DNA from: Clostridia bacterium
GTDB taxonomy: Bacteria; Bacillota; Clostridia; Oscillospirales; Acutalibacteraceae
DNA: 64,000 nucleotides
Direction of reading: 5' to 3'
Assembly: GCA_017631795.1 (NCBI GenBank)
Contig: JAGBSO010000052.1
Coordinates: 6,132-70,131 of the forward strand
Shown one piece after another: positions 8,013-50,165 of the stretch. How positions within the stretch are numbered: the stretch's first letter is position 1; each line of letters begins with the position of its first letter. The notes below the pieces were generated by a model. The model worked only from the letters and a program-made list of their open reading frames with translations. It was not told the origin of the DNA and made no database searches. Made by a program: the position numbers and the translations under genes.

Positions 8013-8187
8013 GAACAATCCGATAATTTCGTGTAGGGGCGGTGTCCCTACCGCCCGATTGTGAGCATAGCGAACAATAACGGCATTGCCGTTTGTTTTC
8101 CTACGGAAAATGCACATTTGTGCCGGGCGTTGAGGACAACGCCCCTACGATATATCAATCAATTCCTGCTTTACTGATTATTGTTTA
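8013..8187 (-). repeat. Type-A miniature inverted-repeat element, copy A1 (REPIN-like core 8033-8148, inverted relative to A2/A3)
   Basis: The core is bounded by GTAGGGGCGGTGTCCCTACCGCCCG and CGGGCGTTGAGGACAACGCCCCTAC. The right terminus CTGATTATTGTTTA is canonical. The left terminus GAACAATCCGATAATTTCG is degenerate. Confidence 0.85.
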
Positions 8188-10560
8188 CAGTCTGAACATC
8201 ATTTCTATAATTCTCTTTACGCACAGTTCGAGTTCTGCACGTGTAAGGTCGCCTTTTTCAACTGCTGCTCTGAGTTCATCGGGGTAACCAACGGGCATTT
8301 TAAGGTCGTTACCTGCTTTTACTTCCTTTACGGGGTCATTCTTGACACCCCAGTCAGTTTCAACCATGCCTTTAAAGCCCCATTCATAGCGGAGAATACC
8401 TGTCAGAAGTTCCCAGCTTTCAGATGTGTGCTGACCGTTTATAAGGTTATATGAAGACATGACAGTGATGGGGTCTGATTCTTTTACAGCAATTTCAAAG
8501 CCTTTGAGATAAATTTCTCTGAGTGCTCTTTCGGAGAGTCTTGAATCGTTCTGATAACGGTTTGCTTCCTTGTTGTTACAGGCAAAATGCTTCATTGAAA
8601 CGGCAATCTTGCTTGACTGCATACCTCTGATGGCAGCAGCGGCAGATTTACCTGCAACAAGGGGATCTTCCGAGTAATATTCAAAGTTTCTTCCGCAAAG
8701 GGGATCACGGTGAATGTTGAGCGCAGGTGTGAGCCAGATGCCGATGTTGTTTTCTCTGACTTCTGCACCGCCTGCAGCACCTACTTCGTAAATCAGATCG
8801 GGATCCCATGAACATGCAAGAAGAGTTGCGCAGGGCCATGCTGTTGTGGGAATTCCTGTTTCGGTGTTAAGACGAAGACCTGCAGGACCGTCTGCTGTGG
8901 GAATAGCGGGAGTGTCGAGTCTGTGTTTTATAGGGCCGAAACAGCCTGTGTTTGCAACACCTGTGGGAGGCTGACCGCCTACGAAATCGCAGAGTTCTTC
9001 GATTGTGAACTGTTTGATAAATTCTTCGATAGTGCATTTTTTGCCGATGTCATCGAATTTTACTGCTTCAGCGGGAGCTTCTGCAACCATTTCGGGTACG
9101 GGTTCATAGTAATATGAAGCTTCACCCATGGGAAGTTCTTCATAAGTTCCGTCTGAAAGCATTCTCTTTGCAAGTTTTGTGGGTCTGCACCACTGTTTAA
9201 GCTGTTCGACAACAGTATCGTTTTTAACAACATATTCAAAGCCGAGTTTTTCTGTATCTCTTACAGAAGTACCCATGTGGAATGTATATGTGCCTTTTTC
9301 AAGGACGTAAGCAGTCTTCTGAATCTTGCCCAGGTCATCGAAACTTGCCATGTTGGTTATATCAAAGCTCATGACAATTGTTTCTGATTCACCGGGAGCG
9401 AGAAGTTTTGTCTTTTTGTATGCGGCAAGCTCTTTTGCAGGTTTGCCGAGTTTGCCCTGGGGAGCAGAATAGTAAAGCTGAACGATTTCTTTACCTGCAA
9501 CGTCGCCTGTGTTTTTAACTGTCACAACAGCAACAATTTTTCCTTCACTTTCAAGACAGGCCTTGCCGCTGAAACTGAATTCTGTATATGAAAGACCGAA
9601 ACCGAAGGGATATCTTACAAATTTATCTGCACCGGGGATTGTTTCAAAATAACGGTAGCCCACATAAATATCATCTGAATAATCGCAGTACCAGAAACTC
9701 TCCCGGAAATCGTCTTTACAGGGATAGCAGTCATAAGTTGTGGCAATTGTGTCAACCATTTTGCCTGAGGGATTCACGTCACCGCAAAGCACATCGGCGA
9801 TTGCAGCACCGCCTTCCATACCGCCCTGCCATGAGAAAAGCAGAGCCTGTACTTTGTCGTTTTCCGCAAAATATTCGCAGTCCATTGTTGCACCTGAATT
9901 TATGACGATAATGACCTTGCTGAAAGCCTGAGTTGCTCTGTCGATAAGATTCTTTTCAAGGTCAGAGAGATAGTAGTCACCGCCCTGAGGTCTTCTGTCA
10001 ACACCTTCTGCAGAGAAGCGGCTCAGAGTGATGATTGCTGTGTCTGCATTTTCTGATGCTGATTTTATAAGCTCATCGGGGACTTCTGCTTCAGTTACGT
10101 GCATAGCCGCAAAGGTATCGTAAGTCATGTCGTCACGCAACTGGCAGAATTCCATATTGTTTACAATGTCCCAACGGGCATTTATCTGCTCTTCGGTGAG
10201 CACATTCACGCTTTCACGCTTTACATATTCTTTGTAGAAATCAACAAGCGGCATGTAAATCTTTACTTTACCTTCTTTTTCTTTTTCTTCAAAGCCTTCA
10301 TAAATATTTCTGATGTAAGGGCAGTGCACATCACCGCTTCCGCCACCGCCTTTTATGTATTCAATTGAAGCTTTTCCGAAAAGAGCAATTCTTTCACCTT
10401 TTGCAAGGGGCAGTGCATTGTCGTTGTTTTTGAGCAATACCATACCTTCTGTTGCAGCTTTTCTTGAAAGTGCAATGTGTTTGTCGGATGCAGTCACACG
10501 TCTGCCGTCTTCTCCCAGAGGAAGACACGGCTGATATCTGAATCTTGCAAATCTATCCAT
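8185..10560 (-). CDS. GH3 beta-glucosidase with permuted domain order
   Basis: I trimmed the ORF to the ATG at 10560 (MDRFARFRYQ...). The N-terminus has GH3 alpha/beta-sandwich motifs (GMVLLKNNDNALPL). The middle has an Fn3-like region (GFGLSYTEFSFS, VTVKNTGDVAGKEIVQLYY). The C-terminus has TIM-barrel motifs (HRDPLCGRNFEYYSEDP, KHFACNN, GMVETDWG). Confidence 0.85.
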   Translation of the reverse strand: MDRFARFRYQPCLPLGEDGRRVTASDKHIALSRKAATEGMVLLKNNDNALPLAKGERIALFGKASIEYIKGGGGSGDVHCPYIRNIYEGFEEKEKEGKVKIYMPLVDFYKEYVKRESVNVLTEEQINARWDIVNNMEFCQLRDDMTYDTFAAMHVTEAEVPDELIKSASENADTAIITLSRFSAEGVDRRPQGGDYYLSDLEKNLIDRATQAFSKVIIVINSGATMDCEYFAENDKVQALLFSWQGGMEGGAAIADVLCGDVNPSGKMVDTIATTYDCYPCKDDFRESFWYCDYSDDIYVGYRYFETIPGADKFVRYPFGFGLSYTEFSFSGKACLESEGKIVAVVTVKNTGDVAGKEIVQLYYSAPQGKLGKPAKELAAYKKTKLLAPGESETIVMSFDITNMASFDDLGKIQKTAYVLEKGTYTFHMGTSVRDTEKLGFEYVVKNDTVVEQLKQWCRPTKLAKRMLSDGTYEELPMGEASYYYEPVPEMVAEAPAEAVKFDDIGKKCTIEEFIKQFTIEELCDFVGGQPPTGVANTGCFGPIKHRLDTPAIPTADGPAGLRLNTETGIPTTAWPCATLLACSWDPDLIYEVGAAGGAEVRENNIGIWLTPALNIHRDPLCGRNFEYYSEDPLVAGKSAAAAIRGMQSSKIAVSMKHFACNNKEANRYQNDSRLSERALREIYLKGFEIAVKESDPITVMSSYNLINGQHTSESWELLTGILRYEWGFKGMVETDWGVKNDPVKEVKAGNDLKMPVGYPDELRAAVEKGDLTRAELELCVKRIIEMMFRL

Positions 10561-10706
10561 AATTATCAGTCCAATCTTTAAAAATAATATAATCATTATA
10601 TACCCGCAGGAAAAAATCGTCAAGAAGAAATAGCATACTGCTCTTGCGTAATGAAAATATTTTTGCTATAATATAGTCATATATACAGACAGTCAGGTGA
10701 TGTCAG

Positions 10707-11906
10707 ATGGAATTTAACAAAGAAAACAGTAAAAAAATAGCAAAATGGATAATCGGTATTGCCACAACGTGTATACTTATCTATCTCGGTGTGCAGAATA
10801 TTGAGTATTTCAGCGGAGCGCTTTCAAAGGGTGTGCAACTTGTCCTTCCTCTGCTTATGGGTATATTTTTTGCACTTATTCTTGATGTTCCTGTTCGTTT
10901 TTTCGAAAGACATCTGTTCAAAAAAAGCAAAAAAGAATTTGTAAAAAAAATGAAAAGACCTCTTGCCCTTGTGCTGGCAATTGTTATGATTGTCGGTGTG
11001 CTGGCAGGTATTATAGGTCTTGTTATTCCCGAGCTTATCAATGCCGTTAAAATCATTGTTCAGGCGGCAGTTGACCTTTTCGGAAAAATCGGTGATACAG
11101 AAGCCGAAGCTCTTGTTTCAAAACTGCCCTTCGGTGAAATGCTTTATAACAATGTACTCGCAAATTACAATATCGACTGGGATAAAATCGGAAGCACACT
11201 GCAGAAATGGATTACAGAACAGGGCGGAAATATCATGAATACTGCAATGGGTACTGTCAGCACACTTGTCAGCGCTGTTGTAAATTTCATTATTGCCATA
11301 TTTTTCGCTATCTATGTGCTTATCAGCAAAGAAAAACTTGAAAAACAGGCTCAGCGTCTGATAAAGGCATGGATTCCCGAAAAAGTCGGAAATATGGTGA
11401 TTCATACATTTGAAGTCGGCGTGGGAATTTTCCGCAATTTCGTTTCGGGACAGACACTCGAAGCAGTCATTCTCGGAACATTGTGTATGGTTGGTATGCT
11501 TATTCTTAAAATACCCTATGCTCCCATGGTCGGTGCTCTTGTCGGTGTTACAGCATACATCCCCGTTGTCGGTGCATTTGTGGGCACTGCAATCGGTGCG
11601 TTCATGATTCTGACTGTTTCACCCACAAAAGCTCTTGTGTTCATTATCTATCTTCTTATATTACAGCAGATTGAAGGCAACGTAATTTATCCCAAAGTCA
11701 TGGGCGACAAAATCAATCTGCCTGCAATATGGGTACTTGCAGCGGTTACAATCGGCGGCGGGATTGCGGGTCCTCTCGGTATGATTCTCGGTGTGCCCAT
11801 TACATCAACAATTTATGTGCTCATCCGTGAGGAAACAGAAAAACGTGAAAAGAAACTGGCAGAAAAAGCAGCTGCCGAAGAAATCACGGAAGTTGAGACA
11901 GAATAA
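10707..11906 (+). CDS. AI-2E family transporter (PerM/UPF0118)
   Basis: 399-aa polytopic membrane protein carrying the family signature QQIEGNVIYPKVMG. Confidence 0.8.
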   Translation: MEFNKENSKKIAKWIIGIATTCILIYLGVQNIEYFSGALSKGVQLVLPLLMGIFFALILDVPVRFFERHLFKKSKKEFVKKMKRPLALVLAIVMIVGVLAGIIGLVIPELINAVKIIVQAAVDLFGKIGDTEAEALVSKLPFGEMLYNNVLANYNIDWDKIGSTLQKWITEQGGNIMNTAMGTVSTLVSAVVNFIIAIFFAIYVLISKEKLEKQAQRLIKAWIPEKVGNMVIHTFEVGVGIFRNFVSGQTLEAVILGTLCMVGMLILKIPYAPMVGALVGVTAYIPVVGAFVGTAIGAFMILTVSPTKALVFIIYLLILQQIEGNVIYPKVMGDKINLPAIWVLAAVTIGGGIAGPLGMILGVPITSTIYVLIREETEKREKKLAEKAAAEEITEVETE

Positions 11907-11916
11907 AAGATGTCAG

Positions 11917-11946
11917 GAAGCCGTAGAAATACGGCTTCTTTTTTTG
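11917..11946 (+). terminator. Rho-independent terminator
   Basis: GAAGCCGTA-GAAA-TACGGCTTC hairpin followed by a T-run. Confidence 0.75.
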
Positions 11947-12028
11947 CATTTTACTATTGTTTTATATAAAAATATTTGTTATAATGTAAAAAGTATATAA
12001 AAACTGCAAACCGAAAGGAGCTTTTAAT

Positions 12029-13693
12029 ATGAAAAAAACACAATGGTACAAAGATGCGGTGTGTTATCAGATCTGGCCCCGTTCATTCTGTGACGGTAAC
12101 GGCGACGGTATAGGCGACCTTGAGGGTGTTCTCTCAAAACTTGATTACCTTAAAGACCTTGGCATCAACTGTATCTGGTTCTCACCCCTTTATTGTTCAC
12201 CCAATGCAGATATGGGTTACGATATCTCAGACTACAGAAATATTTCTCCCGATTACGGTGATAATGAACTTTTCAAAAAGGTGCTTGACGAAGCTCACAA
12301 GCGCGGTATAAAAGTTATCATGGATCTTGTTGTCAACCATACATCAGACGAGCATGAATGGTTTGTAAAGGGTATCGACAAAGACAGCAAATATCACGAT
12401 TACTATCACTGGCGTTACGGAAAAGGCAAAAAACTCCCCAATAACTGGTCTTCACTTTTTGAAGGCAAGGCATGGGAATACAATAAAGATAACGGTCAGT
12501 ATTATCTTCACCTTTTTGCAAAGAAACAGCCTGACCTTAAAATGGAAAATCCCGAAGTCCGCAGAGAAGTAAAGGAAATTATGAAATTCTGGCTTGATAT
12601 GGGTGTTGACGGTTTCCGTGAAGACGTTATCACATTCACATCAAAGAGAGACGGTCTGCCCAACGGTTTCCCCATTCCCCAGGCTTGCGGTATGGAGCAT
12701 TATAAAGACGGTCCCCGTATCCATGAATTCCTTAAAGAATTCAGAGAAGTGCTTAACGAATATGACTGCTTCGTAGTCGGTGAAGCTCCTCTTATGACTC
12801 CCAAAAATGCTCTCAAATATATCGAAGAAAAGCCCGGTCAGGAGCTTGACATGATGTTCCATTTCCAGCACATGGAAGCTGACTGCATCTTCATGGACTG
12901 CCTTAACAAGCCTTTCAGCCTTAAACAGCTCAAGAAAGTCTTCACAAATTGGCAGGATGCACTTTACGGCAAGGCATGGAATGCACTTTACATGGAAAAC
13001 CATGACCATCCCCGTATCATCAACCGTTACGGCAGCGTAAAATACAGAAACGCATCAGCAAAGTCAATCGCAAACTCATATATGCTCCAGTGCGGTACAC
13101 CCTTTATCTATCAGGGTCAGGAAATCGGTATGACAAATATCGATCTTCCCAATGTTGAAGATTATCAGGACGTTTTTGCGGTAAACAACTCAAAGACACT
13201 CAAGCTTCTCGGTTTCTCTGATGAAAAAATCAAGCAGAGACTCAAGACATCAAGCCGTGGTAACGCAAGAACTCCCGTTCAGTGGGATGATACAGACAAC
13301 GCAGGTTTCACAACAGGTGATCCCTGGATGCCCGTAAACCCCAACTATAAAGACGGCATAAACGCAAAGGCAGAAATGGAAAATCCCGATTCTGTTTACA
13401 ATCATTATAAGGCTCTTATCAAATTCCGTAAGGAAAATCCCATTGCAGTTTACGGTGAATATAAAGAATATAATAAATCAAGCAAAGAACTTTATGTTTA
13501 CGAGCGTACATACGAAGGCAAAAAGCTTCTTGTTATCTGTTCATACTCAGAAGATGCAGTAGACTTCAAAGCTCCTGCAGGTTATGACCTTTCAAAGGGT
13601 AAGGCTATCCTTTGCAGCCATAACGACAACCCCGTAAAAGATAACGGATTTACAACAAGACCTTACGAAACAAGAGTTTACTTCTTTGAATAA
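12029..13693 (+). CDS. GH13 alpha-glucosidase (oligo-1,6-glucosidase / trehalose-6-P hydrolase type)
   Basis: 554-aa ORF with WYKDAVCYQIWPRSF, DLVVNHTSDEH, GVDGFREDV, GEAP and ENHDHPR, the conserved regions I-IV of GH13. Confidence 0.9.
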   Translation: MKKTQWYKDAVCYQIWPRSFCDGNGDGIGDLEGVLSKLDYLKDLGINCIWFSPLYCSPNADMGYDISDYRNISPDYGDNELFKKVLDEAHKRGIKVIMDLVVNHTSDEHEWFVKGIDKDSKYHDYYHWRYGKGKKLPNNWSSLFEGKAWEYNKDNGQYYLHLFAKKQPDLKMENPEVRREVKEIMKFWLDMGVDGFREDVITFTSKRDGLPNGFPIPQACGMEHYKDGPRIHEFLKEFREVLNEYDCFVVGEAPLMTPKNALKYIEEKPGQELDMMFHFQHMEADCIFMDCLNKPFSLKQLKKVFTNWQDALYGKAWNALYMENHDHPRIINRYGSVKYRNASAKSIANSYMLQCGTPFIYQGQEIGMTNIDLPNVEDYQDVFAVNNSKTLKLLGFSDEKIKQRLKTSSRGNARTPVQWDDTDNAGFTTGDPWMPVNPNYKDGINAKAEMENPDSVYNHYKALIKFRKENPIAVYGEYKEYNKSSKELYVYERTYEGKKLLVICSYSEDAVDFKAPAGYDLSKGKAILCSHNDNPVKDNGFTTRPYETRVYFFE

Positions 13694-13702
13694 TACTAAA
13701 AA

Positions 13703-13730
13703 AGCTCCATTGAAAAATGGGGCTTTTTCT
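13703..13730 (+). terminator. Rho-independent terminator
   Basis: AGCTCCATT-GAAA-AATGGGGCT hairpin followed by TTTTT. Confidence 0.65.
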
Positions 13731-13743
13731 TGAAAGGTAAAAT

Positions 13744-16896: not shown

Positions 16897-16927
16897 GTAG
16901 GGCGGGATCTCGATAAATTATTGTTTG
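16897..16927. repeat. Remnant of a type-A element (partial REP arm fused to terminal repeat)
   Basis: CGTAGGGCGGGATCTCGATAAATTATTGTTTGAC. This is a GTAGGGCGG fragment followed directly by the canonical terminus CGATAAATTATTGTTT. Confidence 0.6.
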
Positions 16928-27168: not shown

Positions 27169-27323
27169 TTTACCGTCTCCTTGAATCTTTATCATATTTT
27201 TTAAATTATAGCATTTCCGGGGATTTTGTGCAAGATGTAAGATATCTTAATGGGATAAACATTATTACTTCCGGGGGATATTTTGATTTCAGCATAAAAA
27301 AAGACTGAGCGGTTGCTCAGCCT

Positions 27324-27341
27324 TGGTGCGGATGACGGGAC
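27324..27341 (-). pseudogene. Duplicated 3' fragment of tRNA-Leu (last 18 nt incl. CCA)
   Basis: TGGTGCGGATGACGGGAC is identical to 27474-27491. It sits within a ~65-bp direct repeat (27277-27341 versus 27421-27491) that also copies the terminator. Confidence 0.8.
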
Positions 27342-27443
27342 CTGACGGCTGTCGCTTCGCTTTGCCGTCACGGCAACAATTATGTTCGGCTTCGCCGAGA
27401 GTGGGTTCAAGTCCCTGTCTGATATTTTATTTTAATTTCAGCA

Positions 27444-27472
27444 TAAAAAAAAGACTGAGCTTTTGCTCAGTC
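27444..27472 (-). terminator. Rho-independent terminator of tRNA-Leu
   Basis: On the minus strand: GACTGAGC-AAAA-GCTCAGTC followed by T8. Confidence 0.8.
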
Positions 27473-27473
27473 C

Positions 27474-27561
27474 TGGTGCGGATGACGGGACTTGAACCCA
27501 CATGAACTTAGCGTTCACTAGAACCTGAATCTAGCGCGTCTGCCAATTCCGCCACATCCGC
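27474..27561 (-). tRNA. tRNA-Leu (anticodon CAG), type II, CCA encoded
   Basis: Hand-folded. The acceptor stem is GCGGATG/CATCCGC. The D arm is GCG-GAATTGGCAGA-CGC. The anticodon arm is CTAGA-TTCAGGT-TCTAG. The long variable arm is GAAC-GCTAA-GTTC. The T loop is TTCAAGT. Confidence 0.9.
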
Positions 27562-27710
27562 ATATTAACTTGATTACTTCACCAATCATGGTGAGCGCGT
27601 GACTCTTGCGGTGCCCAAAATTCTTTGCTCGCTGTTCGCGTCGCAGAATTTTGACCGCTGCGCCATCTCATTCTCCTTTCATCTCCCACCGGGAGCAGTC
27701 GAATTCGATG

Positions 27711-27732
27711 CTGCCAATTCCGCCACATCCGC
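27711..27732 (-). pseudogene. Duplicated 5' fragment of tRNA-Leu (first 22 nt) directly downstream of the promoter
   Basis: 33 bp (27711-27743) are identical to 27540-27572. This covers tRNA positions 1-22 plus 11 nt of upstream leader. Confidence 0.8.
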
Positions 27733-27763
27733 ATATTAACTTGTGTTACAAGAATGCCTAAAT

Positions 27764-30423: not shown

Positions 30424-30497
30424 AAACAATAATTTATCGCTTCGCTCTATTCATTTTCAACTTTCAATTTTCAATTTTCCACTACAATAATTTAAAA
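30424..30497 (-). repeat. Type-B element, internally deleted copy (B3)
   Basis: AAACAATAATTTATCGCTTCGCTCTATTCATTTTCAACTTTCAATTTTCAATTTTCCACTACAATAATTTA. This equals the reverse complement of the left half of B1, joined to the right terminus at the GAGCGAAGC repeat. Confidence 0.8.
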
Positions 30498-31155: not shown

Positions 31156-33015
31156 ATGAAAATGAGAATGCCTGCAATACCTCTTATTACGGTTGACCCG
31201 TATTTTTCGGTATGGACAGATAATATAAATGACCACACCCCCTATCATTGGACAGGAAGTGACAATACAATTGTCGGCACAGTCAATGTTGACGGAAATG
31301 TTTACCGTTTTCTCGGTGACAGTGAAGATGACAAACTGAAAGTTGTGTCTCTTGATGCCGATACATTTTCAACAACAGTTGTCTATGAAGGTGCAGGAAT
31401 CAGACTCACTGCAAAATTCACTTCTCCCATGCTTGTCACAGACCTTTATTATGCGTCAAGACCTGTTTCTTATCTGAAACTTTCTTACGAAGCAACTGAC
31501 GGTAAGGAGCATCTTGTTTCTGCTAAAATTTCTGTAAGTGAAGAGCTTGTGCTCAACAAAGCAGGAGAGGGCAGAGCATGGTCAGAAAGTGTTGATACTG
31601 ATGAGCTCACATGGGTCAGAATGGGTAAAGGCAATCAGAAAGTGCTCTGGAGAAGCGGTGACGATGTGCGCATAGACTGGGGTTATTTCTACCTTGCAGT
31701 CAAAGGTGAAGCACAGACAGGCAACGAAGTGCTTGAAGAAGACCTTTATGCTGTTTTCGCAGAAACTGAGCTTGATAACGAAAAGCTTTTCCTTTTTGCT
31801 TATGACGATATCGAAAGCATGGTATATTTCGGTGAGCATCTGAAAGCATACTGGAATAATGACGGTAAAACAATCGAAGAAGCAATCCTTGAAGCTGCGG
31901 AAGATTATGACAGACTGGTGGCAGAATGTGAAGAATTCTCTCAGAAGCTTGTTGCGGAAGCAACTGAAAAAGGCGGAGAGAAATATGCCGAAATGCTTCA
32001 GCTTGCATACCGTCAGGTCATGGCTGCACACAAACTTGTTGTTGATAAAGAGGGTAATAATCTTTACATTTCAAAGGAATGTTTCTCAAACGGCTGTGCA
32101 GCAACAGTAGACGTTACATATCCCAGTGCTCCCATGTATCTTCTTTATAACACAGAGCTTCTCAAAGGTATGCTCAGACCTGTTTTCCGTTATGCTGCAA
32201 CAGAAGAATGGCAGTTTGACTTCGCACCTCACGATGTCGGTCAGTATCCGCTTGTAAACGGTCAGGTTTACGGTCAGAATAAGCTTAAATATCAGATGCC
32301 CGTTGAAGAATGCGGAAATATGATTGTGCTCGTTTCTGCAATCTGCGAAAAAGATAACGACTATTCATTTGCAGCAGAAAACATGGAAGTCCTTGATAAG
32401 TGGAGCAGATATCTTGTCAAATACGGCAAAGACCCCGAAAATCAGCTCTGTACAGACGACTTTGCAGGACATCTTTCTCATAACTGCAACCTTTCACTCA
32501 AAGCAATCATGGGGATGACAGGTTTTGCAAGAATCCTCAATCATTTCGGCAGAAATGAAGAAGCTGATGAGCTTTTCGCAAAGGCTAAGGAATATGCAGA
32601 CTCATTTATCGCAAATGCAAAAAATGCAGACGGCAGCTATCGTCTTGCTTATGACAGAGAAGGCACATTCAGCCTTAAATATAACTCAGTGTGGGATAAA
32701 ATCTGGAAAACTGAGCTTCTGCCTGACAGTTTCTATAAGGGTGAAATCGAGAGATACAAAAAAGAGGCACTGCCTTACGGTGTACCCCTTGATACAAGAG
32801 AAAAATATACAAAGTCCGACTGGCTTATCTGGGCTGCCTGTCTTGCAGATAACAAGGAAGATTTTGAATTCTTCGCAGAGCTTCTCTGGAATGCGTACAA
32901 TACAATGCGTACAAGAGTGCCCATGACAGACTGGTATTATGCAGATACATCAGAAATGGTCGGCTTCAGACACAGAACCGTTCAGGGCGGACTGTTTATT
33001 AAATTAATGATGTAA
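31156..33015 (+). CDS. DUF4965/DUF1793 glutaminase-A-like putative glycoside hydrolase
   Basis: The N-terminus PAIPLITVDPYFSVW and the overall size are typical of this family. The start is ambiguous among 31147, 31156 and 31162. Confidence 0.6.
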   Translation: MKMRMPAIPLITVDPYFSVWTDNINDHTPYHWTGSDNTIVGTVNVDGNVYRFLGDSEDDKLKVVSLDADTFSTTVVYEGAGIRLTAKFTSPMLVTDLYYASRPVSYLKLSYEATDGKEHLVSAKISVSEELVLNKAGEGRAWSESVDTDELTWVRMGKGNQKVLWRSGDDVRIDWGYFYLAVKGEAQTGNEVLEEDLYAVFAETELDNEKLFLFAYDDIESMVYFGEHLKAYWNNDGKTIEEAILEAAEDYDRLVAECEEFSQKLVAEATEKGGEKYAEMLQLAYRQVMAAHKLVVDKEGNNLYISKECFSNGCAATVDVTYPSAPMYLLYNTELLKGMLRPVFRYAATEEWQFDFAPHDVGQYPLVNGQVYGQNKLKYQMPVEECGNMIVLVSAICEKDNDYSFAAENMEVLDKWSRYLVKYGKDPENQLCTDDFAGHLSHNCNLSLKAIMGMTGFARILNHFGRNEEADELFAKAKEYADSFIANAKNADGSYRLAYDREGTFSLKYNSVWDKIWKTELLPDSFYKGEIERYKKEALPYGVPLDTREKYTKSDWLIWAACLADNKEDFEFFAELLWNAYNTMRTRVPMTDWYYADTSEMVGFRHRTVQGGLFIKLMM

Positions 33016-33211
33016 ACAATAATTTAGCGGAATGTTTGAAGAAATTAAAATCGAGCCAGTAGGGGCGATGTCCTCATCGCCCGGCACGAATGTGCATTTT
33101 TCGTAGGAAAATTTAACGGCATAGCCGTTATTGTTCGCTTTGCTCACAATCGGGCGGTGAGGACACCGCCCCTACATGAACATATCAGATTATTCGCTAA
33201 ATCATTGTTTA
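33014..33211 (+). repeat. Type-A miniature inverted-repeat element, copy A2 (REPIN-like core 33059-33175)
   Basis: The termini are AAACAATAATTTAGCGG and CGCTAAATCATTGTTTA. The core arms are GTAGGGGCGATGTCCTCATCGCCCG and CGGGCGGTGAGGACACCGCCCCTAC. Confidence 0.9.
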
Positions 33212-33213
33212 AC

Positions 33214-33247
33214 AAAAATGCCGTCGGTTTTCCGACGGCATTTTTTG
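33214..33247. terminator. Bidirectional rho-independent terminator
   Basis: TGCCGTCGG-TTTT-CCGACGGCA hairpin flanked by A5 and T6. Confidence 0.8.
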
Positions 33248-37345: not shown

Positions 37346-37510
37346 AACAATAATTTTGAGGAGCTAAATTATTGTAGTGGCAAATTGAAAATTGAAAATT
37401 GAAAGTTGAAAATGTATAGAGCGAAGCAGAATCAAGTGCGAAGCACTTCCGAAACTTTCCATTTTCCATTCTCAACTTTCCATTTGAGCGAAGCGATAAA
37501 TTATTGTTTA
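37346..37510 (+). repeat. Type-B miniature inverted-repeat element, full copy B1
   Basis: The left terminus AACAATAATTTTGAGGAGCTAAATTATTGTA forms a small hairpin. It is followed by TTGAAAA-type tandem repeats, a central GAAGCACTTC region, and an imperfect mirror arm. The right terminus is GCGATAAATTATTGTTTA. Confidence 0.88.
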
Positions 37511-37581: not shown

Positions 37582-38133
37582 TTAAGCTTCGAATGATGCG
37601 GGAGCCATTACGAAGAAAACAAGGTTTCCTTCTGCAGCTGCTGCCATTTCGTCAGCCTGTGTGCAGATGTTCCATCTGAGGTTTGCATTGTCTTCAAGAC
37701 CCTTAACGAATGCGTCTGCATCTGTGCCTTCAGAAAGTGTGAAAACGTAGCTGATGAAAGGAATTGTGCCCATCATGGGAGCAACCATGATGCACTTGTC
37801 AAAACCGAGAACTTCGTAGTTGTCAAAACCTGAAAGATAGTTTTCTTCAAGTTCCATTTCCATTGCTGCGGGGCCGATAGCTGCAACTGCTGTGCTCTGA
37901 GCGAGTTTTTCTGCAACTGCAAGAGCGTCTGTTTCTGTAGCTGCAAGAGCCTTGAATTCAGCAACGAGTGTCTGAGCAACTGATTCACCGCTTACAGCAG
38001 CTTCTGATGTTTCTTCAACTGTTTCCTGAACGTCTGCTTCTGTTGTGATTTCTTCTGTAACGGGAGCCTTTGAGCATGCTGCAAGAGCAAGAACCATTAC
38101 GAGAGCCATGAGGATTGCGAGTACTTTTTTCAT
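37582..38133 (-). CDS. Hypothetical lipoprotein
   Basis: Signal peptide with a lipobox (LALAAC), followed by an acidic low-complexity linker. Confidence 0.6.
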   Translation of the reverse strand: MKKVLAILMALVMVLALAACSKAPVTEEITTEADVQETVEETSEAAVSGESVAQTLVAEFKALAATETDALAVAEKLAQSTAVAAIGPAAMEMELEENYLSGFDNYEVLGFDKCIMVAPMMGTIPFISYVFTLSEGTDADAFVKGLEDNANLRWNICTQADEMAAAAEGNLVFFVMAPASFEA

Positions 38134-39655: not shown

Positions 39656-39730
39656 ATGTATTCCTCCGTATCAAGAATCACAATCAAATCAAGTATACAA
39701 TATTTGCAGATATTTTTCAATAGCAAAAAT

Positions 39731-39918
39731 AAACAATAATTTATCAAATAAATTAAATGGCATCTTGTAGGGGCGTTGTCCTCAACGCCCGGCACGACAG
39801 TGCATTTTCCACAGGAAAATTTAACGGCAAAGCCGTTCTGCTTCGCAGCGGGCGTTGGGGACAACGCCCCTACTGGCTTGATTGTAATTCCTGCAATTAT
39901 ACCAATAAATTCTTGTTT
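39731..39918 (+). repeat. Type-A miniature inverted-repeat element, copy A3 (REPIN-like core 39767-39873)
   Basis: The left terminus is AAACAATAATTTATC. The core arms are GTAGGGGCGTTGTCCTCAACGCCCG and CGGGCGTTGGGGACAACGCCCCTAC. The right terminus CCAATAAATTCTTGTTT is degenerate. The element lies in the divergent araA/GH2 promoter region. Confidence 0.85.
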
Positions 39919-39981
39919 TTTCTTGATTTAATTTCTGTTTTATGATAATATCCAATTATCATAAACAAAGCAGGTGTTAAA

Positions 39982-43029: not shown

Positions 43030-43054
43030 ACTTGAAAAATTCATCAAACACATA

Positions 43055-43083: not shown

Positions 43084-43114
43084 ATAAACATAAATTAAAA
43101 GGAGGAATGCTCGT

Positions 43115-43828: not shown

Positions 43829-43873
43829 AATTCAAGAAAAAGACCTGACCGGATAGTCGGGTCTTTTTTAGTG

Positions 43874-44311: not shown

Positions 44312-44409
44312 AATAAACCACTCCTTTTTAATAAATTTACCCGTTTTGCATATTGATATGTATCGGTAACAAAAAATTCGCATATTATTTGAACAGGGGA
44401 GTGGATTTT

Positions 44410-44646
44410 ATGAAATGTTCAGTAAACAGTCTTTGCAATAAGGATGTTATAACGGTCAATGACGGAATGAAAATCGGTACCGTGAGTGATGCTGAGTTTG
44501 ATACGGAAACAGGATGCATCACAGCACTGATTATCAGCGGAAAACAGGGATTTTTCGGCATAGTCGGCAAAACCGAAGATATCAGGATAAACTGGTGTGA
44601 CATCGAAGTGATAGGCGATGATACGATTCTTATAAAAAAATGCTGA
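44410..44646 (+). CDS. ylmC: YlmC/YmxH-family PRC-barrel sporulation protein
   Basis: I trimmed the ORF to MKCSVNSLCNKDVITVNDGMKIGTVSDAEFD (GGGGAG RBS). It is 78 aa. Confidence 0.8.
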   Translation: MKCSVNSLCNKDVITVNDGMKIGTVSDAEFDTETGCITALIISGKQGFFGIVGKTEDIRINWCDIEVIGDDTILIKKC

Positions 44647-44679
44647 GTCATTTTCAGGCTCAGCATTTTGTGTTTATTA

Positions 44680-45333: not shown

Positions 45334-45347
45334 TTTTATTTGTCCTT

Positions 45348-46382
45348 TCATATGAAATAAAACTGTGTATCCCATGCGGGGATATAGGGATTGTGTCTGA
45401 TAAAAACTTTGTAATCATCACGTATAGACATAATCTGCAAGGGAATTGCAAAGATATCCTCCGACCTGTGATAACATGAAACAAGCATTTTCGGTCTGCA
45501 TCGTTTTATGGTCTCAGCCGCACCGTCTATGGCTTCTTTTTCAAGACCTTCCACATCAAATTTGATGTATGTCACATCTTTTTCTCCGAGAATACTGTCA
45601 ACCGTCACGCATTTTACGGTGTTGCCGTTTTTGTCTGCGTTACCGTTTCTGCCACCGTGTTTTGAAAAAGTGACTTCACCGCAGTTGTCTGAAATGCAGA
45701 TATTCAGACATTCAATATTTTCAAGATGCTCTGTGTTGTTTTTAAGCTTTGTGAAATTTTTTATATCAGGCTCAGCCGCATAGATTTTTCTGTACGACTT
45801 CACATTACTGAGAAATTCTGCAATCGTGTCACCGTTGAATGCACCAAGGTCCATATAAATTTCATCATCACCGAGTTTCAGAATGTTTTCATATGCTTCA
45901 TCTCTTGATGTTTCGCATTCAAGCAGATAATTTATGTCACCGGTCAGCTTGAAATTTATTATATTGTCAAAAACTGCCTTTGATTTTTCTTCACAGAGCA
46001 TATTTCTGACCTGCACGATCAGAGCCTTGTGTTTTTCATAAAAATCACGGCTGAAGATGTTGTCACCGTAAACGGGCACATCAACGGAATAAGTTTCTCT
46101 TTCCCTGCTGACTTTTATAAAATTCCCAATAACTTCTTCACGCTGAGAGCCGAAAGAAATCAGCGTCAGAAAATCACCGAATTGCTCTTTAGCCTGAGTG
46201 TAGCTGATAACAGGGAAGCCTCTGAATGTGCGGCTTCTGACAAATCCGTCCGATGCAAAAATCCCTGAAACGGGAATGCCAAGTCTTTGCAGCTCATCAA
46301 GAATTCTGTCAGCTCCGTTACCCGTGCCGTAAATGAGTACGGGTTTTTCTGTTTCTTTTGCTCTTTCCCAGACTGTTTTCAT
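45348..46382 (-). CDS. FkbM-family methyltransferase
   Basis: 344-aa ORF with a MDLGAFNGDT SAM-binding motif and a C-terminal region typical of FkbM. Confidence 0.7.
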   Translation of the reverse strand: MKTVWERAKETEKPVLIYGTGNGADRILDELQRLGIPVSGIFASDGFVRSRTFRGFPVISYTQAKEQFGDFLTLISFGSQREEVIGNFIKVSRERETYSVDVPVYGDNIFSRDFYEKHKALIVQVRNMLCEEKSKAVFDNIINFKLTGDINYLLECETSRDEAYENILKLGDDEIYMDLGAFNGDTIAEFLSNVKSYRKIYAAEPDIKNFTKLKNNTEHLENIECLNICISDNCGEVTFSKHGGRNGNADKNGNTVKCVTVDSILGEKDVTYIKFDVEGLEKEAIDGAAETIKRCRPKMLVSCYHRSEDIFAIPLQIMSIRDDYKVFIRHNPYIPAWDTQFYFI

Positions 46383-47098
46383 TCGAGTATGTTTGATGTG
46401 ATGAACTCAATGCCCAATGAAGCAAGATTTTCACCTGCTGCGGGGTCATCACATGTCCAGCAGTTTACTTTTATTCCTGCATCGTGAAGCTCTTTCATGT
46501 TGTCTGCATTGAGAGAAGTGTATTTTATGTCAAGGTCAAGATTATGCTCTTTAAGAGTATCAAGAAGCCATGGCTCATAGTTGTCAATAAGGAACTGTGC
46601 TTCCTGTTCGGGATATTTCTTTCTGAGGAAAACGAGATTTTCAAGGCAGAATGAAATAAAAACAACATTCGGGAGATAGCCGAGATCTTTTATGATGTCA
46701 ACGATTTCATAGACTTCATCTTCTGTGAAAGCATTTTTAAGTTCAAGCACAGCCACTTTTTCATATTTTTTGCAGATGGAAATATACTCCTGCAATGTGG
46801 GGATTCTGATGTCTGACCTGCCCTTTTTGCCGTCAATATCTGTGAGCAGAAGATTTCTCAGACAGTCAAAAGTTGTCTTTTCAACTTCCATGTCGTCAAT
46901 GGCAACTCTGCCTGTTGTGTCGTCATGGAAAACAACATATTTTCCGTCAAGAGTCTTGTGCACGTCTGTTTCAATGCCGTAATAGCTTCTGTTGCCTGCC
47001 GCAACAAAAGCTGCATTTGTGTTTTCTTTTTCGATACCGCTCAGACCTCTGTGGGCGATGATTTTTGTTTCTTTTTTGTCAAATTTAACAGTGTTCAT
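46379..47098 (-). CDS. Glycerophosphodiester phosphodiesterase (GDPD)
   Basis: IIAHRGLSG...ENT...GIETDVH motifs are present. It has an ATGA overlap with the FkbM gene. Confidence 0.85.
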   Translation of the reverse strand: MNTVKFDKKETKIIAHRGLSGIEKENTNAAFVAAGNRSYYGIETDVHKTLDGKYVVFHDDTTGRVAIDDMEVEKTTFDCLRNLLLTDIDGKKGRSDIRIPTLQEYISICKKYEKVAVLELKNAFTEDEVYEIVDIIKDLGYLPNVVFISFCLENLVFLRKKYPEQEAQFLIDNYEPWLLDTLKEHNLDLDIKYTSLNADNMKELHDAGIKVNCWTCDDPAAGENLASLGIEFITSNILE

Positions 47099-47229
47099 AA
47101 AAACACCTCCGATGACAGAAGTATAACATTTACAGTCCGAAACTTCAATATTAAATTAATAAATATATTGCAAAATAAATGAAGATGTGATATCATTTAT
47201 AGTGATTGAATATCGAAAGGACGTTTTTT

Positions 47230-48117
47230 ATGGAAATCGCAGAGCAGTTATATAAAGATTTTACCGATGAACAGAAAGCGAAGCTTCATGAAATACAGGA
47301 AATCGAGCTTAAATTGTTAAGAGAAGTGGACAGAATCTGCAAAAAGCACGGTCTGCACTATTCTCTCAGCGGCGGTACTCTTCTGGGTGCAATCCGTCAT
47401 AAGGATTTCATTCCCTGGGATGACGACATTGACCTTGACCTCAAGAGAGATGATTTCAATAAGCTTATCTCAATTCTTCCCGATGAGCTCGGTGATGAAT
47501 TTGAATTTATAAATTACAATGAGTACGGTGAATATCACTGTGACTTCATTCCCAGAATTTTTTACAGAAACAGCAAGGCTGTCAATTCTTTCAGCACAGA
47601 CGGCGGTAAAAACAATTTCGCAAATGACGAAAGAATGAACAGAATCTTCATAGAGCTTTATTGTCTGCATGACACAGATACAAAATGCGTCAAGAGTCAG
47701 ATTTTTAAGGTCAAGATGATTTACGGACTTGCTATGGGACACAGACTTATTCCCACAGACAGCTCAAATTATTCATTCATCCAGAAAATGCAGGTTAAAG
47801 TGCTTTCAACTGCAGGTAAACTCATGCCCATGGCAAAAATCTACAAGATGTATGAAGACTGCGTAAACAGTGTGAAGACAGGTGACGGTGACCTTTATTT
47901 CAAACCCAGTGTACCCCTGCCTGTTCAGCACAGAAATGTATTCCCCAAGAATTTCTTTGAATCTTACACAGAAGTACCCATCAGAAACGATATGGCTATG
48001 GCACCTGCAGAATATATAAAGGTGCTTGAATATCTTTACACAAACTGGCAGGATCTTCCCAAAGAAAAGGACAGACATCCCGGTCACTTTGAACTTCTCA
48101 GGACAGAGATTTTTTAA
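47230..48117 (+). CDS. LicD-family phosphotransferase
   Basis: The LicD signature GGTLLGAIRHKDFIPWDDDIDL is present. I chose the ATG at 47230 (AAAGGA RBS) rather than the TTG at 47206. Confidence 0.8.
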   Translation: MEIAEQLYKDFTDEQKAKLHEIQEIELKLLREVDRICKKHGLHYSLSGGTLLGAIRHKDFIPWDDDIDLDLKRDDFNKLISILPDELGDEFEFINYNEYGEYHCDFIPRIFYRNSKAVNSFSTDGGKNNFANDERMNRIFIELYCLHDTDTKCVKSQIFKVKMIYGLAMGHRLIPTDSSNYSFIQKMQVKVLSTAGKLMPMAKIYKMYEDCVNSVKTGDGDLYFKPSVPLPVQHRNVFPKNFFESYTEVPIRNDMAMAPAEYIKVLEYLYTNWQDLPKEKDRHPGHFELLRTEIF

Positions 48118-48135
48118 AACACAAGGAGTAAATTT

Positions 48136-48786
48136 ATGAATATTATCATTATTATGTCAGGCGGTGTGGGCAACAGATTCGGTGCAAATATCCCGAAACA
48201 GTATTGCCTTCTCAACGGCAGACCTGTTATTGATTATGTTATAGATGCCGCAAAAGGCTCGAAAGTTGCAGATAAAGTTGTTGTTGTCTGCGATCCTTCA
48301 TGTGTTGATTATTCCGAATATCTCAAAAATTCAGGCTTTGACTTTGCCGTAAACGGTAAAGAACGTCTTGATTCTCTCAAGAGTGCTTTTGACCACATTC
48401 AGGCAAATTATCCCGAGTGTGAAAGAATCATTATTCTTGATGCTGTTGCACCTTTTGTCACATCAGAGCTTATTGACGATTATCTCACAAAGCTTGATGA
48501 TAACGACGCAGTTATCACCTGCCAGAAGATAACAGGAGCTCTCGGCAACTATAATTACGATCCTCTTGACCGTGAAGAGTATTACATGACACAGTCTCCC
48601 GAAGCATTCCGTTTCAGGACTCTCATTCCTCACTTCACAACAACATTCCCCAGTCAGGAACTTGCATGGCAGATGCCCAGAGAAACAAAGAAGTATCTCA
48701 ACTTTGAATTTAAGAATAATCTCAAGCTCACATATGACTTTGACCTTAAATATGCTTCATATATGCTTGAAGAATTCAAAAAATAA
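48136..48786 (+). CDS. IspD/TarI-family cytidylyltransferase (CDP-alcohol forming)
   Basis: N-terminal SGGVGNRFG nucleotide-binding motif. The ORF is 216 aa. Confidence 0.75.
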   Translation: MNIIIIMSGGVGNRFGANIPKQYCLLNGRPVIDYVIDAAKGSKVADKVVVVCDPSCVDYSEYLKNSGFDFAVNGKERLDSLKSAFDHIQANYPECERIIILDAVAPFVTSELIDDYLTKLDDNDAVITCQKITGALGNYNYDPLDREEYYMTQSPEAFRFRTLIPHFTTTFPSQELAWQMPRETKKYLNFEFKNNLKLTYDFDLKYASYMLEEFKK

Positions 48787-48803
48787 TTTCACGGAAGTGT
48801 TTT

Positions 48804-50015
48804 ATGGCAACCGATAAGAAGAAAATTTTCAATATAGCGTCAGACCTGGTGTTCAGCATCGCAGGTCTTATGCTTATGAACGGTATGATCCAGTTGCTTA
48901 TCAATCCGATGCTCAATGAGTGGATGGGTGAGGCAGCATTCGGTAATTACCAGTCGATATTTGCAGTCGTATCTATTATGGGTACGACTTTCGGTGTTGC
49001 CGCAAACTATTCGAGAATGGTACGTTCAAGAGATAAAAAGGACACAAACGGTGACTATAACATCTTCCTTGTTGTCATCGCAGTGCTGTGTGTTGCTGTC
49101 GCAGCAGGAACGCTGATTGTCTATAAATCATTCAACGCAGTGCATTTTGTTCTTCTTTCCGTGCTGACGGTTGCAACCGTTCTCAGGTATTACGGTGATG
49201 TAAATTACCGTATGAAGCTCAATTATAAAGGCTTTTTCGTTTATTATGCGATTATAACAGCAGGCTATTGCCTCGGTCTGTTACTCTTTAAATTTGTTTC
49301 ACCCGTATGGATGCTGACAATTCTTGCAGGTGAAGTTGCAGCGGTTGTTTTTGTTCTGTTCAACGGAGACATTTTCAAAGGCAAAAAGATGCTGACACGT
49401 TCAGAACATTTCGGCGGAACAATGAAATCCGTGGGTGTTCTTTCAACCACAAATCTTCTTTCTGCCGTTGCACAGCAGTCCGATAAGATAATTCTCGGTC
49501 TTGCAATGGGCGGTGAAGCAGTAACAACATTCTATGTTGCAACACTTCTGGGCAAAGTCATTTCTCTTCTGACAACCCCCCTCAACGGTGTGCTTATCGG
49601 ATATCTCACAAAATATGAGGGTAAATTCACAAAGAAAATGGTGGTTGTCTTCACTGCAGTGCTTCTCGGACTGGGAATCGTTGCAGTTGCAGGATGTTAT
49701 ATCGCATCGGAAATTTTTGTAAAACTCTTTTACCCCGATGTTTTTGCTGATGCAGAAAAGTATTTTCTTCTTGCAAGTGCAGGTCAGGTATTCTATTTTA
49801 TTTCAAATTGTCTTATGACTGTTATTCTCCGTGTTGCAAGTGAAAAATATCAGATGTACATAAATATTGTGTATATCATTATATATGCGGCAACGGTTAT
49901 TCCGCTTACAATGTCTTTCGGCATCTGGGGTATGACAATTGCCCTGCTTATCACAAACGGTGCAAAGTTTGCGATAACAAGCATGGTGGGAATGGTTAAA
50001 ACCGGTAAACAATAA
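48804..50015 (+). CDS. Wzx-like polysaccharide/teichoic-acid flippase (MOP superfamily)
   Basis: 403-aa protein with about 12 TM helices, in a glycopolymer gene context. Confidence 0.6.
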   Translation: MATDKKKIFNIASDLVFSIAGLMLMNGMIQLLINPMLNEWMGEAAFGNYQSIFAVVSIMGTTFGVAANYSRMVRSRDKKDTNGDYNIFLVVIAVLCVAVAAGTLIVYKSFNAVHFVLLSVLTVATVLRYYGDVNYRMKLNYKGFFVYYAIITAGYCLGLLLFKFVSPVWMLTILAGEVAAVVFVLFNGDIFKGKKMLTRSEHFGGTMKSVGVLSTTNLLSAVAQQSDKIILGLAMGGEAVTTFYVATLLGKVISLLTTPLNGVLIGYLTKYEGKFTKKMVVVFTAVLLGLGIVAVAGCYIASEIFVKLFYPDVFADAEKYFLLASAGQVFYFISNCLMTVILRVASEKYQMYINIVYIIIYAATVIPLTMSFGIWGMTIALLITNGAKFAITSMVGMVKTGKQ

Positions 50016-50165
50016 TTTAGCTGTGCTGAATTATTGTAATTGAAAATTGAAAGTTGAAAATTGAAAATGTATAGAGCGAAGCGGAAGTAAGTGCGTAGCA
50101 CTTCCGAAACTTTCCATTTTCCATTCTCAATTTTCCATTAAGCATAGCGATAAATCATAATTCTG
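50007..50165 (+). repeat. Type-B miniature inverted-repeat element, full copy B2
   Basis: Collinear with B1: AAACAATAATTTAGCTGTGCTGAATTATTGTA, TTGAAAA repeats, a central GCACTTCC region and a mirror arm. The right terminus GCGATAAATCATAATTC is degenerate. Confidence 0.85.

Follow-up and report, generated by a model that had tools for sequence, protein, structure and literature searches.

Repetitive extragenic palindromic (REP) sequences and REP doublets forming hairpins (REPINs), considered together with the RAYT proteins of the Y1/HUH type (PMC2817692, PMC3333891, PMC3733652), are the closest described systems for a family of short repeats found in a 64,000-nucleotide stretch of contig JAGBSO010000052.1 from a Clostridia bacterium (the window, by which we mean this whole stretch). 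Seven features of the window are copies of one non-coding, hairpin-forming mosaic repeat family, in which an AT-rich terminal palindrome, here called the shell, accompanies either REP dimers (type A) or hairpins armed with tandem heptamers (type B). We consider it probable, if far from certain, that REP dimers became nested in a palindromic, non-autonomous repeat family, and that the composite spread as a unit and was then diversified in place. The type-A core resembles REP/REPIN sequences in its GTAG head, GC-rich imperfect palindrome and compensatory stem changes, and also in its inverted head-to-head dimers with a structured spacer, its extragenic and multicopy occurrence in the window, and the existence of both singlets and dimers in other genomes. 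It differs in that every REP dimer seen in the host lineage lies in a longer AT-rich palindrome with homologous linkers, that a RAYT is absent from the window, and that REP families of Clostridia were not found in the literature searched.

Enterobacterial bacterial interspersed mosaic elements (BIMEs) are mosaics of REP with other short motifs (PMC2817692). The window family is likewise a mosaic of short hairpin modules at strain-polymorphic loci, but its modules are an AT-rich terminal palindrome, heptamer arrays and triloop mini-hairpins, and its elements are single long hairpins as opposed to tandem REPs in alternating orientation. REP dimers inside longer palindromes have been described for Anabaena variabilis GTAG-15, Thermomicrobium roseum GTAG-23 and Halothiobacillus neapolitanus CGTC-1 (PMC3733652). 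Here, too, the dimer is central in a longer conserved palindrome that also occurs free of REPs, as in T. roseum; the differences are that this palindrome also bounds heptamer-armed cargo and at least two REP classes, and that the composite is polymorphic between close strains.

The modular layout of the hairpin family also recalls the A-B(n)-C build of BOX elements. Like the miniature inverted-repeat transposable elements of bacteria (MITEs) and modular repeats (Correia/NEMIS, RUP, ERIC and pneumococcal BOX; PMC3733652), its members are 160-200 bp long, non-coding, furnished with terminal inverted repeats (TIRs), able to form long hairpins, gene-adjacent and a source of stop codons. Unlike these, they have termini that fold as a hairpin by themselves and, in type B, three terminus copies; no target-site duplication was established and no parent insertion sequence (IS) was found. 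Palindrome-associated transposable elements (PATEs) are IS200/IS605-derived non-autonomous elements. When the family was compared with the features of a PATE (hairpins in subterminal position, termini that are not inverted, and insertion 3' of a specific 4-5 nt target without duplication; for IS200/IS605 ends see PMC3333891 and PMC6006769), it was found to be hairpin-rich, with similar hairpins at both element ends in loci L050, L162 and L163, and one site, that of element A2, can be read as an insertion 3' of a fixed pentanucleotide with no duplication. The termini are nevertheless true inverted repeats that pair together, unlike IS200/IS605 ends, and TnpA was not found.

Cyanobacterial short tandemly repeated repetitive (STRR) heptamers are intergenic 7-nt arrays. 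Intergenic arrays of the heptamer TAACTGA have been reported from Beggiatoaceae, cyanobacteria and Bacteroidetes (PMC4679880), and these resemble the arms of our type-B elements in having 3-5 tandem 7-nt units, an intergenic location, several types per genome and no assigned function. In the window family, by contrast, the arrays form complementary inverted pairs that make a hairpin stem, co-vary and are attached to a conserved terminal palindrome; the question of origin and role is shared with the cyanobacterial and Beggiatoa repeats. Overall, the family belongs to the known REP/BIME/MITE class, of which it is an unusually modular member, and does not represent a system of another kind. Its unusual features are the use of one terminal palindrome for REP dimers and heptamer-armed hairpins, the co-varying arms, the very dense triloops closed by C-G, and the differences in content between close strains at anchored sites.

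The terminal palindrome

The original prediction that type-A and type-B elements share their termini is borne out by the 13-mer AAACAATAATTTA, which has six exact matches in the window as compared to 0.01 expected, all of them at type-A or type-B edges: 16914(-), 30424(+), 33014(+), 37497(-), 39731(+) and 50007(+). With up to two mismatches allowed there are 19 matches in the window (5.3 expected). Among the 13 mismatched ones, five are element edges, namely the partner ends at 33198(-) and 39906(-) plus 37345(+), 37365(-) and 30482(+); the other eight are scattered, at chance level. The shared ends pair as a 33-35 bp palindrome, TAAACAATAATTTAGC-nnn-GCTAAATTATTGTTTA, which is the shell, and the conserved AT-rich palindrome (T)AAACAATAATTTAGC...GCTAAATTATTGTTT(A) makes up the basal stem of the elements. 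The shell has the form of an A-tract, a GC apex and a T-rich tract, and its palindrome holds TAA in several frames on both strands. While the sequence of the outer stem is conserved, the apical stem differs between copies in a compensatory manner (AGC/GCT, ATC/GAT, ACC/GGT and GTCGGGC/GCCCGAC); its covariation score of 0.117, as compared to 0.047, was reached by 1 of 500 shuffles, and the outer nine pairs, being set by the search pattern, carry no weight in this comparison.

The shell is a real, separable unit, since it occurs by itself in three settings: at the site orthologous to element A3 in strains L033 and L168, as the left end of B1 and of B2, and among contigs of other metagenomes. In L033 (94% AraA identity) the A3-orthologous site holds just AAACAATAATTCAGCTTAGTTAAATTATTGTTT, followed by the right flank as in the window, and in L168 (AraA 99%) it holds a decayed form of the same solo shell. 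A metagenome scan for the shell pattern returned at least 120 loci, most of which are chance AT-rich palindromes; among the matches listed, the clear shell relatives are L050, L055, L125 and L135. Locus L050 reads shell, heptamers, shell, and L055 has a shell followed by AATGAGT-type heptamers, while in L125 the order is a shell, (AATTCGT)4, a hairpin with a triloop, a GTAG REP dimer of a different sort, the second arm and CGATAAATTATTGTTTA. In L135, solo shells at 7412-7446 and 8626-8660 lie on both sides of one Na+/H+ exchanger gene; the shell at 7412-7446 overlaps the exchanger's own stop codon, and the one at 8626-8660 overlaps the stop of the upstream gene. The gene between these two shells was considered as a parent transposase and rejected on account of its identity as an exchanger, and six matches to the shell pattern in viral contigs were judged to be chance.

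These ends invite two other accounts. In the first, the elements form a classical MITE superfamily, in which a DDE transposase encoded elsewhere (for example of IS630/Tc1-mariner type, which targets TA) recognises the 15-16 bp TIRs TAAACAATAATTTAGC and cuts and pastes whatever DNA lies between, so that the cores are no more than filling and the smallest element is the 33-bp shell. The inverted termini are indeed conserved in sequence across unrelated cores and metagenomes, solo terminus pairs exist, a TA stands at the outer edge of ~70% of ends, and a size of 160-200 bp with an intergenic, stop-codon-adjacent position is typical of bacterial MITEs (PMC3733652). On the other hand, the TA may simply belong to the palindrome's own letters, and the covariation of the apical stem, like the packed triloops described below, suggests that structure matters beyond the sequence of the ends. 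In the second account, the shell is a resident palindromic target, a hotspot of attC-like or REP-target-like kind outside any mobile unit, at which A and B cargos insert independently and share no more than a landing site. The shell standing alone at the A3-orthologous site would fit this, as would the precedent of T. roseum, where REP dimers lie in target palindromes that are also found unoccupied (PMC3733652). The homology of the linkers among A1-A3 and the shell shared by B1 and B2 argue instead that whole units were copied. We regard the MITE account as a serious but less probable alternative, and the landing-site account as rather unlikely.

REP dimers and heptamer-armed hairpins

The type-A core is a REPIN-like GTAG-REP dimer that shows each structural feature tested for REP/REPIN membership. 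Its arms consist of a 5' GTAG (GT[A/G]G) head and a GC-rich imperfect palindrome, the defining REP form; the core edges, GTAGGGGCGnTGTCCnnAnCGCCCG and its reverse complement, are present at 6/6 arms, and the bases at its n positions can pair in the arms of the window and, with the single exception of L006, in the matches from other genomes. The two arms are inverted with GTAG outside, the arrangement that Di Nocera et al. call a head-to-head (HH) dimer (PMC3733652), and folds pair both arms. Between them lies a spacer with three conserved mini-hairpins, GCAC-n4-GTGC, TTTTCC-n3-GGAAAA and AACGGC-n3-GCCGTT, and the linkers from REP to terminus are homologous among A1, A2 and A3 and mutually inverted. 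The three elements are 80-83% identical with their linkers included; global identity is uninformative across core types, as the unrelated pair A2/B1 already reaches 75%.

The window holds three REP dimers and one remnant, all extragenic. A2 (33014-33211, plus strand) is a complete type-A element with REP arms at 33059-33083 and 33151-33175 and mini-hairpins at 33084-33095, 33097-33111 and 33115-33129; folded as DNA it forms a single long hairpin (-52 kcal/mol, z -9.45) with the termini as basal stem. A3 (39731-39918, plus strand), in the divergent araA-lacZ spacer, is also complete, with arms at 39767-39791 and 39849-39873 and mini-hairpins at 39792-39803, 39805-39819 and 39823-39837. A1 (8013-8187, minus strand, in A2-like orientation) has the degenerate ends GAACAATCCGATAATTTCG and TGATTATTGTTTA, arms at 8033-8057 and 8124-8148, and mini-hairpins at 8079-8093, 8096-8110 and 8112-8123; its terminal TTA doubles as the stop codon (8185-8187) of a GH3 gene. 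The remnant (16897-16927, plus strand), between the SAICAR synthase and PHP genes, consists of a partial REP head, GTAGGGCGGG, and then an exact right terminus, CGATAAATTATTGTTT.

REP dimers are not confined to this combination. In a scan of one genome per species, the same REP hairpin was found in 19 loci, from Clostridia metagenome-assembled genomes (MAGs), Pseudoflavonifractor, Intestinimonas, Acidobacteriota/Terriglobia and Chthoniobacter, as singlets or inverted dimers and in no case with AT-rich termini, which makes the REP dimer a widespread module in its own right. Two REP classes occur in shells (REPs of the forms GTAGGGGCG... and GTAGGGAsCGATG...), and strain L168 has at 3215-3385 a perfect type-A element with exact left (L) and right (R) termini around a class-2 REP dimer. 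In L125 the REP dimer lies inside a heptamer-type element.

Several observations on the REP hairpins were made along the way. Near-identical versions of the hairpin GTAGGGGCGnTGTCCnnAnCGCCCG are found in Acidobacteriota/Terriglobia, Chthoniobacter and Clostridia (L009, L011, L013, L021 and L022), pointing to horizontal transfer of a RAYT-REP pair or else to very strong constraint. In L020 (HRGM_Genome_1970) the REP arms enclose tandem ~50-nt units (…GGAAATCCGGCGGTTTCTGAGAACGGCGATATCCCCGTTGCCCGTCC…), the spacer having expanded into a minisatellite. Another recurrent hairpin, GCCTTCCCC-nnn-GGGGAAGGTGGC, stands beside REPs in other Clostridia (L006, L015 and L019), and in RUG11088 (L015) REP and GCCTTCCCC-nnn-GGGGAAGGTGGC hairpins lie between (AATGGGA)4 and (TCCCATT)n arms, so heptamer-armed mosaics exist in other rumen Clostridiales too.

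Type-B elements open with a left hairpin built of both termini (AACAATAATT, 11 nt, AATTATTGT), followed by AATTGAA-type heptamers, GAGCGAAGC, the triloop hairpin AAGTGC-GNA-GCACTT, a roughly complementary array, GAGCGAAGC again and a right terminus. B1 (37346-37510, plus strand) has its shell hairpin at 37346-37375, arm 1 at 37380-37413, GAGCGAAGC at 37419-37427 and 37486-37494, the central triloop hairpin at 37434-37448, arm 2 at 37456-37485 and the right terminus at 37497-37509. In B2 (50007-50165, plus strand; 87% identical to B1) the corresponding parts are a shell hairpin at 50008-50037, arm 1 at 50038-50068, GAGCGAAGC at 50074-50082, the central hairpin at 50089-50103 and arm 2 at 50111-50139; the stop codon of a 403-aa gene (50013-50015) lies inside its left terminus, and its degenerate right end, CGATAAATCATAATT, matches 11/15 terminus positions and is about equally like the native sequence of the empty site. 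B1 and B2 thus hold three terminus copies each, an L-loop-R hairpin on the left and a further R on the right. B3 (30424-30484, minus strand) is a truncated type B, with an outer terminus at 30424-30436, GCTTCGCTC at 30439-30447 and one heptamer arm at 30453-30483, and it lacks the central hairpin, the second arm and the partner terminus. It is not bounded by inverted termini: a second motif at 30482-30494 has the same orientation as the first, holds the TAG stop of a gene (30482-30484) and is partly native flank, because ATAATTTAAAATCC is common to strains L165 and L030. B1, B2 and B3 account for all period-7 arrays in the window. A 24-nt tandem repeat (37899-37950, 2.2 copies, 82% matches) was also seen beside B1, in a 183-aa open reading frame (ORF) without a Pfam match.

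The layout of type B is therefore an L-R hairpin, a core, and then an R or a second hairpin, and it is no simple TIR-bounded element. Inverted termini at both ends are present in A2, A3, L168:3215-3385 and the B3-site element of L165; the earlier claim that both types are bounded by the same inverted termini stands for A2 and A3 and has to be amended for type B, whose hairpin-core-hairpin or L-R-core-R build also speaks against a plain TIR pair as the MITE account would have it. Similarly, the seven copies originally counted all belong to one family, with the provisos that A1 has degenerate ends, B3 is truncated and has a direct second motif, and B2 matches the terminus at 11/15 positions on the right. 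The statement that all are intergenic is nearly correct as well, except that the terminal TAA is, or supplies, stop codons at 8185-8187, 33013-33015 and 50013-50015, in addition to the stop within the second motif of B3.

Within an element, arm 1 and arm 2 are 79-90% complementary, whereas arms of different types are 50-78% alike, and at orthologous sites the anchors and central hairpins are kept while the heptamer type changes. Much of the 'core' variation is rapid turnover of heptamer arms round conserved central hairpins as opposed to a swap of unrelated cores; the modular picture drawn in the original prediction is otherwise largely right. When 20 family elements (4.1 kb) were compared with shuffles, triloop hairpins (5 bp or more of perfectly paired stem closing a loop of 3 nt) numbered 42, as compared to 7.1 +/- 2.6, with 33/42 closed by C..G and 11/42 having GAA or TTC loops. 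DNA mini-hairpins with a C-GNA-G triloop, for example d(GCGAAGC), are known for exceptional stability (PMC13037366, PMC3201870), and this density of stable triloops hints that the structures may matter at the level of DNA. Both strands fold with near-equal energy, so strand asymmetry gave no signal for RNA versus DNA.

A further account holds that these are functional cis-acting RNA or DNA structures under selection (bidirectional terminators, mRNA-stabilising 3' hairpins or promoter modules), which are not mobile and were copied by convergence or ancient duplication. Elements do abut stop codons and Shine-Dalgarno sequences, the A-tract/GC apex/T-rich form of the shell is suggestive, and B1 and B3 contain promoter-like hexamers in heptamer arm and terminus. 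However, promoter-like sites number 26 versus 22 expected, not above chance, and a promoter role for these hexamers was rejected. A terminator scan marked no element end and four mini-hairpins inside elements (A2 has one and A3 two, and the fourth is B1's central hairpin), and the elements do not show the GC-rich stem and U-tract of an intrinsic bidirectional terminator; the canonical bidirectional terminator at 33214-33245 lies outside A2 and is kept in the strain in which the A2 site is empty. In addition, orientation relative to transcription is inconsistent (B1 is antisense, B2 and B3 sense), folding is about as good for either strand, identity between copies at unrelated loci is 80-93%, presence or absence is polymorphic, and no Rfam model matches: with Rfam 15 covariance models the window gave a tRNA-Leu and no repeat, both at the gathering threshold and at E<=1. 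Occupancy of the B1 and gidA sites in every lineage examined speaks for it; we judge this account very unlikely, the least probable of those considered.

Orthologous sites in related strains

Syntenic loci of related strains were obtained through AraA homologues (94-99% AraA identity). At the A2 site, L030 shows a clean absence that includes the termini (GATGTAAAC/AAAAAG), with the neighbouring terminator retained, so the termini belong to the unit that is gained or lost, as the original prediction required of such an empty-site comparison. B2 is also absent from L030, where the C-terminus of the gene reads ...KTGKQ* in place of ...KTNK*, the element supplying the stop. Whole units, ends included, are thus present in some strains and absent from others, which goes against both the cis-functional account and the notion of the shell as a mere landing site, because the empty A2 site of L030 has no shell, and shell and core came or went together. 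In L165 the A2 site has the left terminus, one REP, the mini-hairpins and, instead of the right REP and terminus, a (TTCTCAC)3 array, which arises from the core's own GCTCAC.

The B1 site, with the same flanks, is occupied in 5/5 other lineages in which a contig spans it. L165 has AATTGAA arms, as in the window; L030 has AATTCTC/AATTCGC arms and an inverted centre; L163 has the window's type, inverted; L162 has AATGAGT arms; and L168 has a class-2 REP dimer. At the B3 site, L165 carries a complete L-(AATGCAC)n-hairpin-(GTGCATT)n-R element and L030 a decayed stub. At the gidA site, outside the window, L162 and L167 have common end hairpins and a homologous central hairpin with different arms, AATGAGT versus AAAGAAT. 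Five contents in six lineages at the anchored B1 site would suit a resident target, as would the likeness of empty sites to the terminus (TAAACAA at A2, ATAAAT at B2 and the native flank TTAAATTAT at B3); against it, L162 has three copies of the AATGAGT type (type D) in 19 kb, each with its own end hairpins.

The target-site duplication (TA or TAA) named in the original prediction could not be established. The filled and empty A2 junctions fit insertion 3' of TAAAC with no duplication and no indel, whereas duplication of a TA requires a 1-nt indel; the MITE account is helped by the loss of A2 and its termini at a TA and weakened by this indel. The B2 pair is ambiguous, as its right end is similar to terminus and native sequence alike. 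The term MITE, used in the earlier prediction, is thus apt for the TIRs, the size and the whole-unit polymorphism, but no target-site duplication was established and no transposase with matching ends was found.

Two of these loci show further variation. The araA-lacZ spacer (39656-39981; L030:9240-10001, L165:7483-10001, L033:5591-5781) is a strain-variable hotspot, which in L030 contains a 172-aa membrane ORF and a terminator and in L165 a TIR-domain gene (CAP12-PCTIR_TIR, 464 aa; TIR here being a protein domain) with a nucleoside hydrolase gene, likely a defence pair. At the B1-orthologous site of L030, an IS30-family IS (12240-13211) lies 1 bp away from the resident repeat's right terminus; it encodes a 323-aa transposase with HTH_38 and rve domains, has the ends TGTTGCACTTA... 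and shows what looks like a 10-bp duplication, TAAATCTAAA. Insertion of IS may be favoured by the repeats. As a parent element this IS was rejected, since its ends are unrelated, and it is the only IS seen nearby.

Mobilisation, host and neighbouring sequences

In agreement with the original prediction, no transposase was recognised in the window: Pfam assigned no transposase or recombinase domain to its genes, seven ORFs having no Pfam match. No transposase with matching ends was seen in the window or the related-strain loci, and tblastn of the same sequences found no RAYT or Y1 protein with approximate IS200 and RayT queries. The sole Y1 found is a Y1_Tnp gene (PF01797, E 3.4e-10) in a Terriglobia MAG, at a distance of ~2 kb from a REP dimer of the same class.

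We return to the reading we prefer, that of REP dimers nested in a palindromic repeat that spread. In this sequence of events, REP dimers, modules of the kind handled by Y1/HUH RAYTs, would have become nested inside pre-existing shell-type palindromes, as is suggested by two REP classes in the same shell, a REP dimer in a heptamer element and the same REP elsewhere without a shell. The composite would then have multiplied as a unit, termini included, because the linkers of A1-A3 are homologous. An enzyme encoded outside the window would act in trans. Heptamer arrays would arise and turn over by slippage or local amplification, to which the L165 variant of A2 points, and the arms would be held complementary by template switching or selection. 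Recombination of copies with one another would explain the mosaic shell apices. Flanking genes would receive stop codons and strong 3'-UTR hairpins from the elements, likely as a side effect. The original prediction had offered either a REPIN inserted into an older MITE or one trans-acting enzyme that recognises the common ends; the separable shell, the REPIN-like type-A core and the class-2 REP in the same shell in L168 favour nesting, and the homologous linkers imply that the nested composite spread as one unit, so elements of both models are combined.

Several points weigh against this sequence of events. The direction of change at the A3 site is ambiguous, as a core may have entered a shell or been lost from it, and differing shell subtypes hint at replacement of whole elements. 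That the same sites stay occupied in different lineages could be due to selection for a function and not to mobility. The triloop argument for action at the DNA level is indirect. The Terriglobia Y1 gene belongs to a different phylum and does not directly flank a REP, and a mobilising enzyme was not found in the window or in the related-strain loci. Finally, there is one clean filled/empty pair, A2, which cannot separate TA duplication from none. On balance, we lean towards mobilisation by a single-strand, hairpin-recognising (HUH-type) activity, with a TA-targeting DDE transposase as the main and serious alternative. It is also conceivable, and in our estimate quite unlikely, that the terminal hairpin is the recognition or recombination site of a candidate single-strand recombinase (HUH-type or other) that loads, swaps and inverts hairpin cargos at fixed anchors, a cassette-like system in which the arms would be (re)written by a templated process of 7-nt periodicity and not by ordinary mutation.

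If true, nesting and spread of this kind would extend REP/REPIN biology, which has been described mostly in Proteobacteria, to uncultured Clostridia of the ruminant gut, and would provide a worked example of how two non-autonomous DNA layers combine, with REP dimers nested in a palindromic repeat that spreads. Co-varying heptamer arms and dense C-GNA-G triloops offer a clean natural case for studying the action of DNA hairpins and the origin of 7-nt arrays. For the host, the family alters the 3' ends of genes and marks strain-variable hotspots.

We take this host to be an uncultured ruminant-gut Clostridia lineage. Contigs identical to the window come from ruminant gastrointestinal metagenomes, and the closest named relatives of its AraA are from a 'Clostridia bacterium' MAG (98%) and an 'Acutalibacteraceae bacterium' (89%). 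The window is ~41% GC, has GGAGG ribosome-binding sites, and encodes the atp operon, many glycoside hydrolases, araA, lacZ, rpoB and rpoC; the product of a neighbouring gene has a cohesin domain, and related loci have dockerin-domain genes. Contigs of other assemblies, from the same or related strains, end inside A2, A3, B1 and B2 (L026, L027, L004 and L167), as is expected of multicopy repeats. The family thus limits the contiguity of MAGs in the host lineage, metagenome assemblies breaking at the repeats.

Searches elsewhere returned little. Look-ups of the same proteins retrieved the same strain at 100% identity and hence no information on polymorphism. Scans of viral contigs for the REP arm, the B core and the A spacer gave no matches, as did a metagenome scan for the B core, and BLAST against plasmids gave no match for A2 and low-complexity heptamer matches for B1. 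The literature searched contained no description of the hairpin family, no paper on REPIN/RAYT in Firmicutes and nothing relevant on MITEs in Ruminococcus, and the terminus sequence led to unrelated papers.

Two internal snippets had been proposed as evidence of exchange between modules. One of them, CTGCTTCGC, said to be shared by A3 and B1, has three matches in comparison with 0.51 expected, one of them in a gene, and is at chance level. The other, CGCTTCGCT, is enriched (four matches versus 0.28 expected), and its copy in the spacer next to the tRNA gene lies at 27353-27361, one base from the position first given. That gene, for tRNA-Leu(CAG) (27474-27561, minus strand), has parts duplicated nearby (27296-27742): its 3' end and downstream hairpin (27446-27495) recur at 27296-27345 with 90% identity, and its 5' end recurs near 27713-27742. 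The spacers are hairpin-rich and contain, besides CGCTTCGCT, an inverted copy of the T-arm; a tRNA array in decay, or traces left by an integrative element, may account for these duplications.

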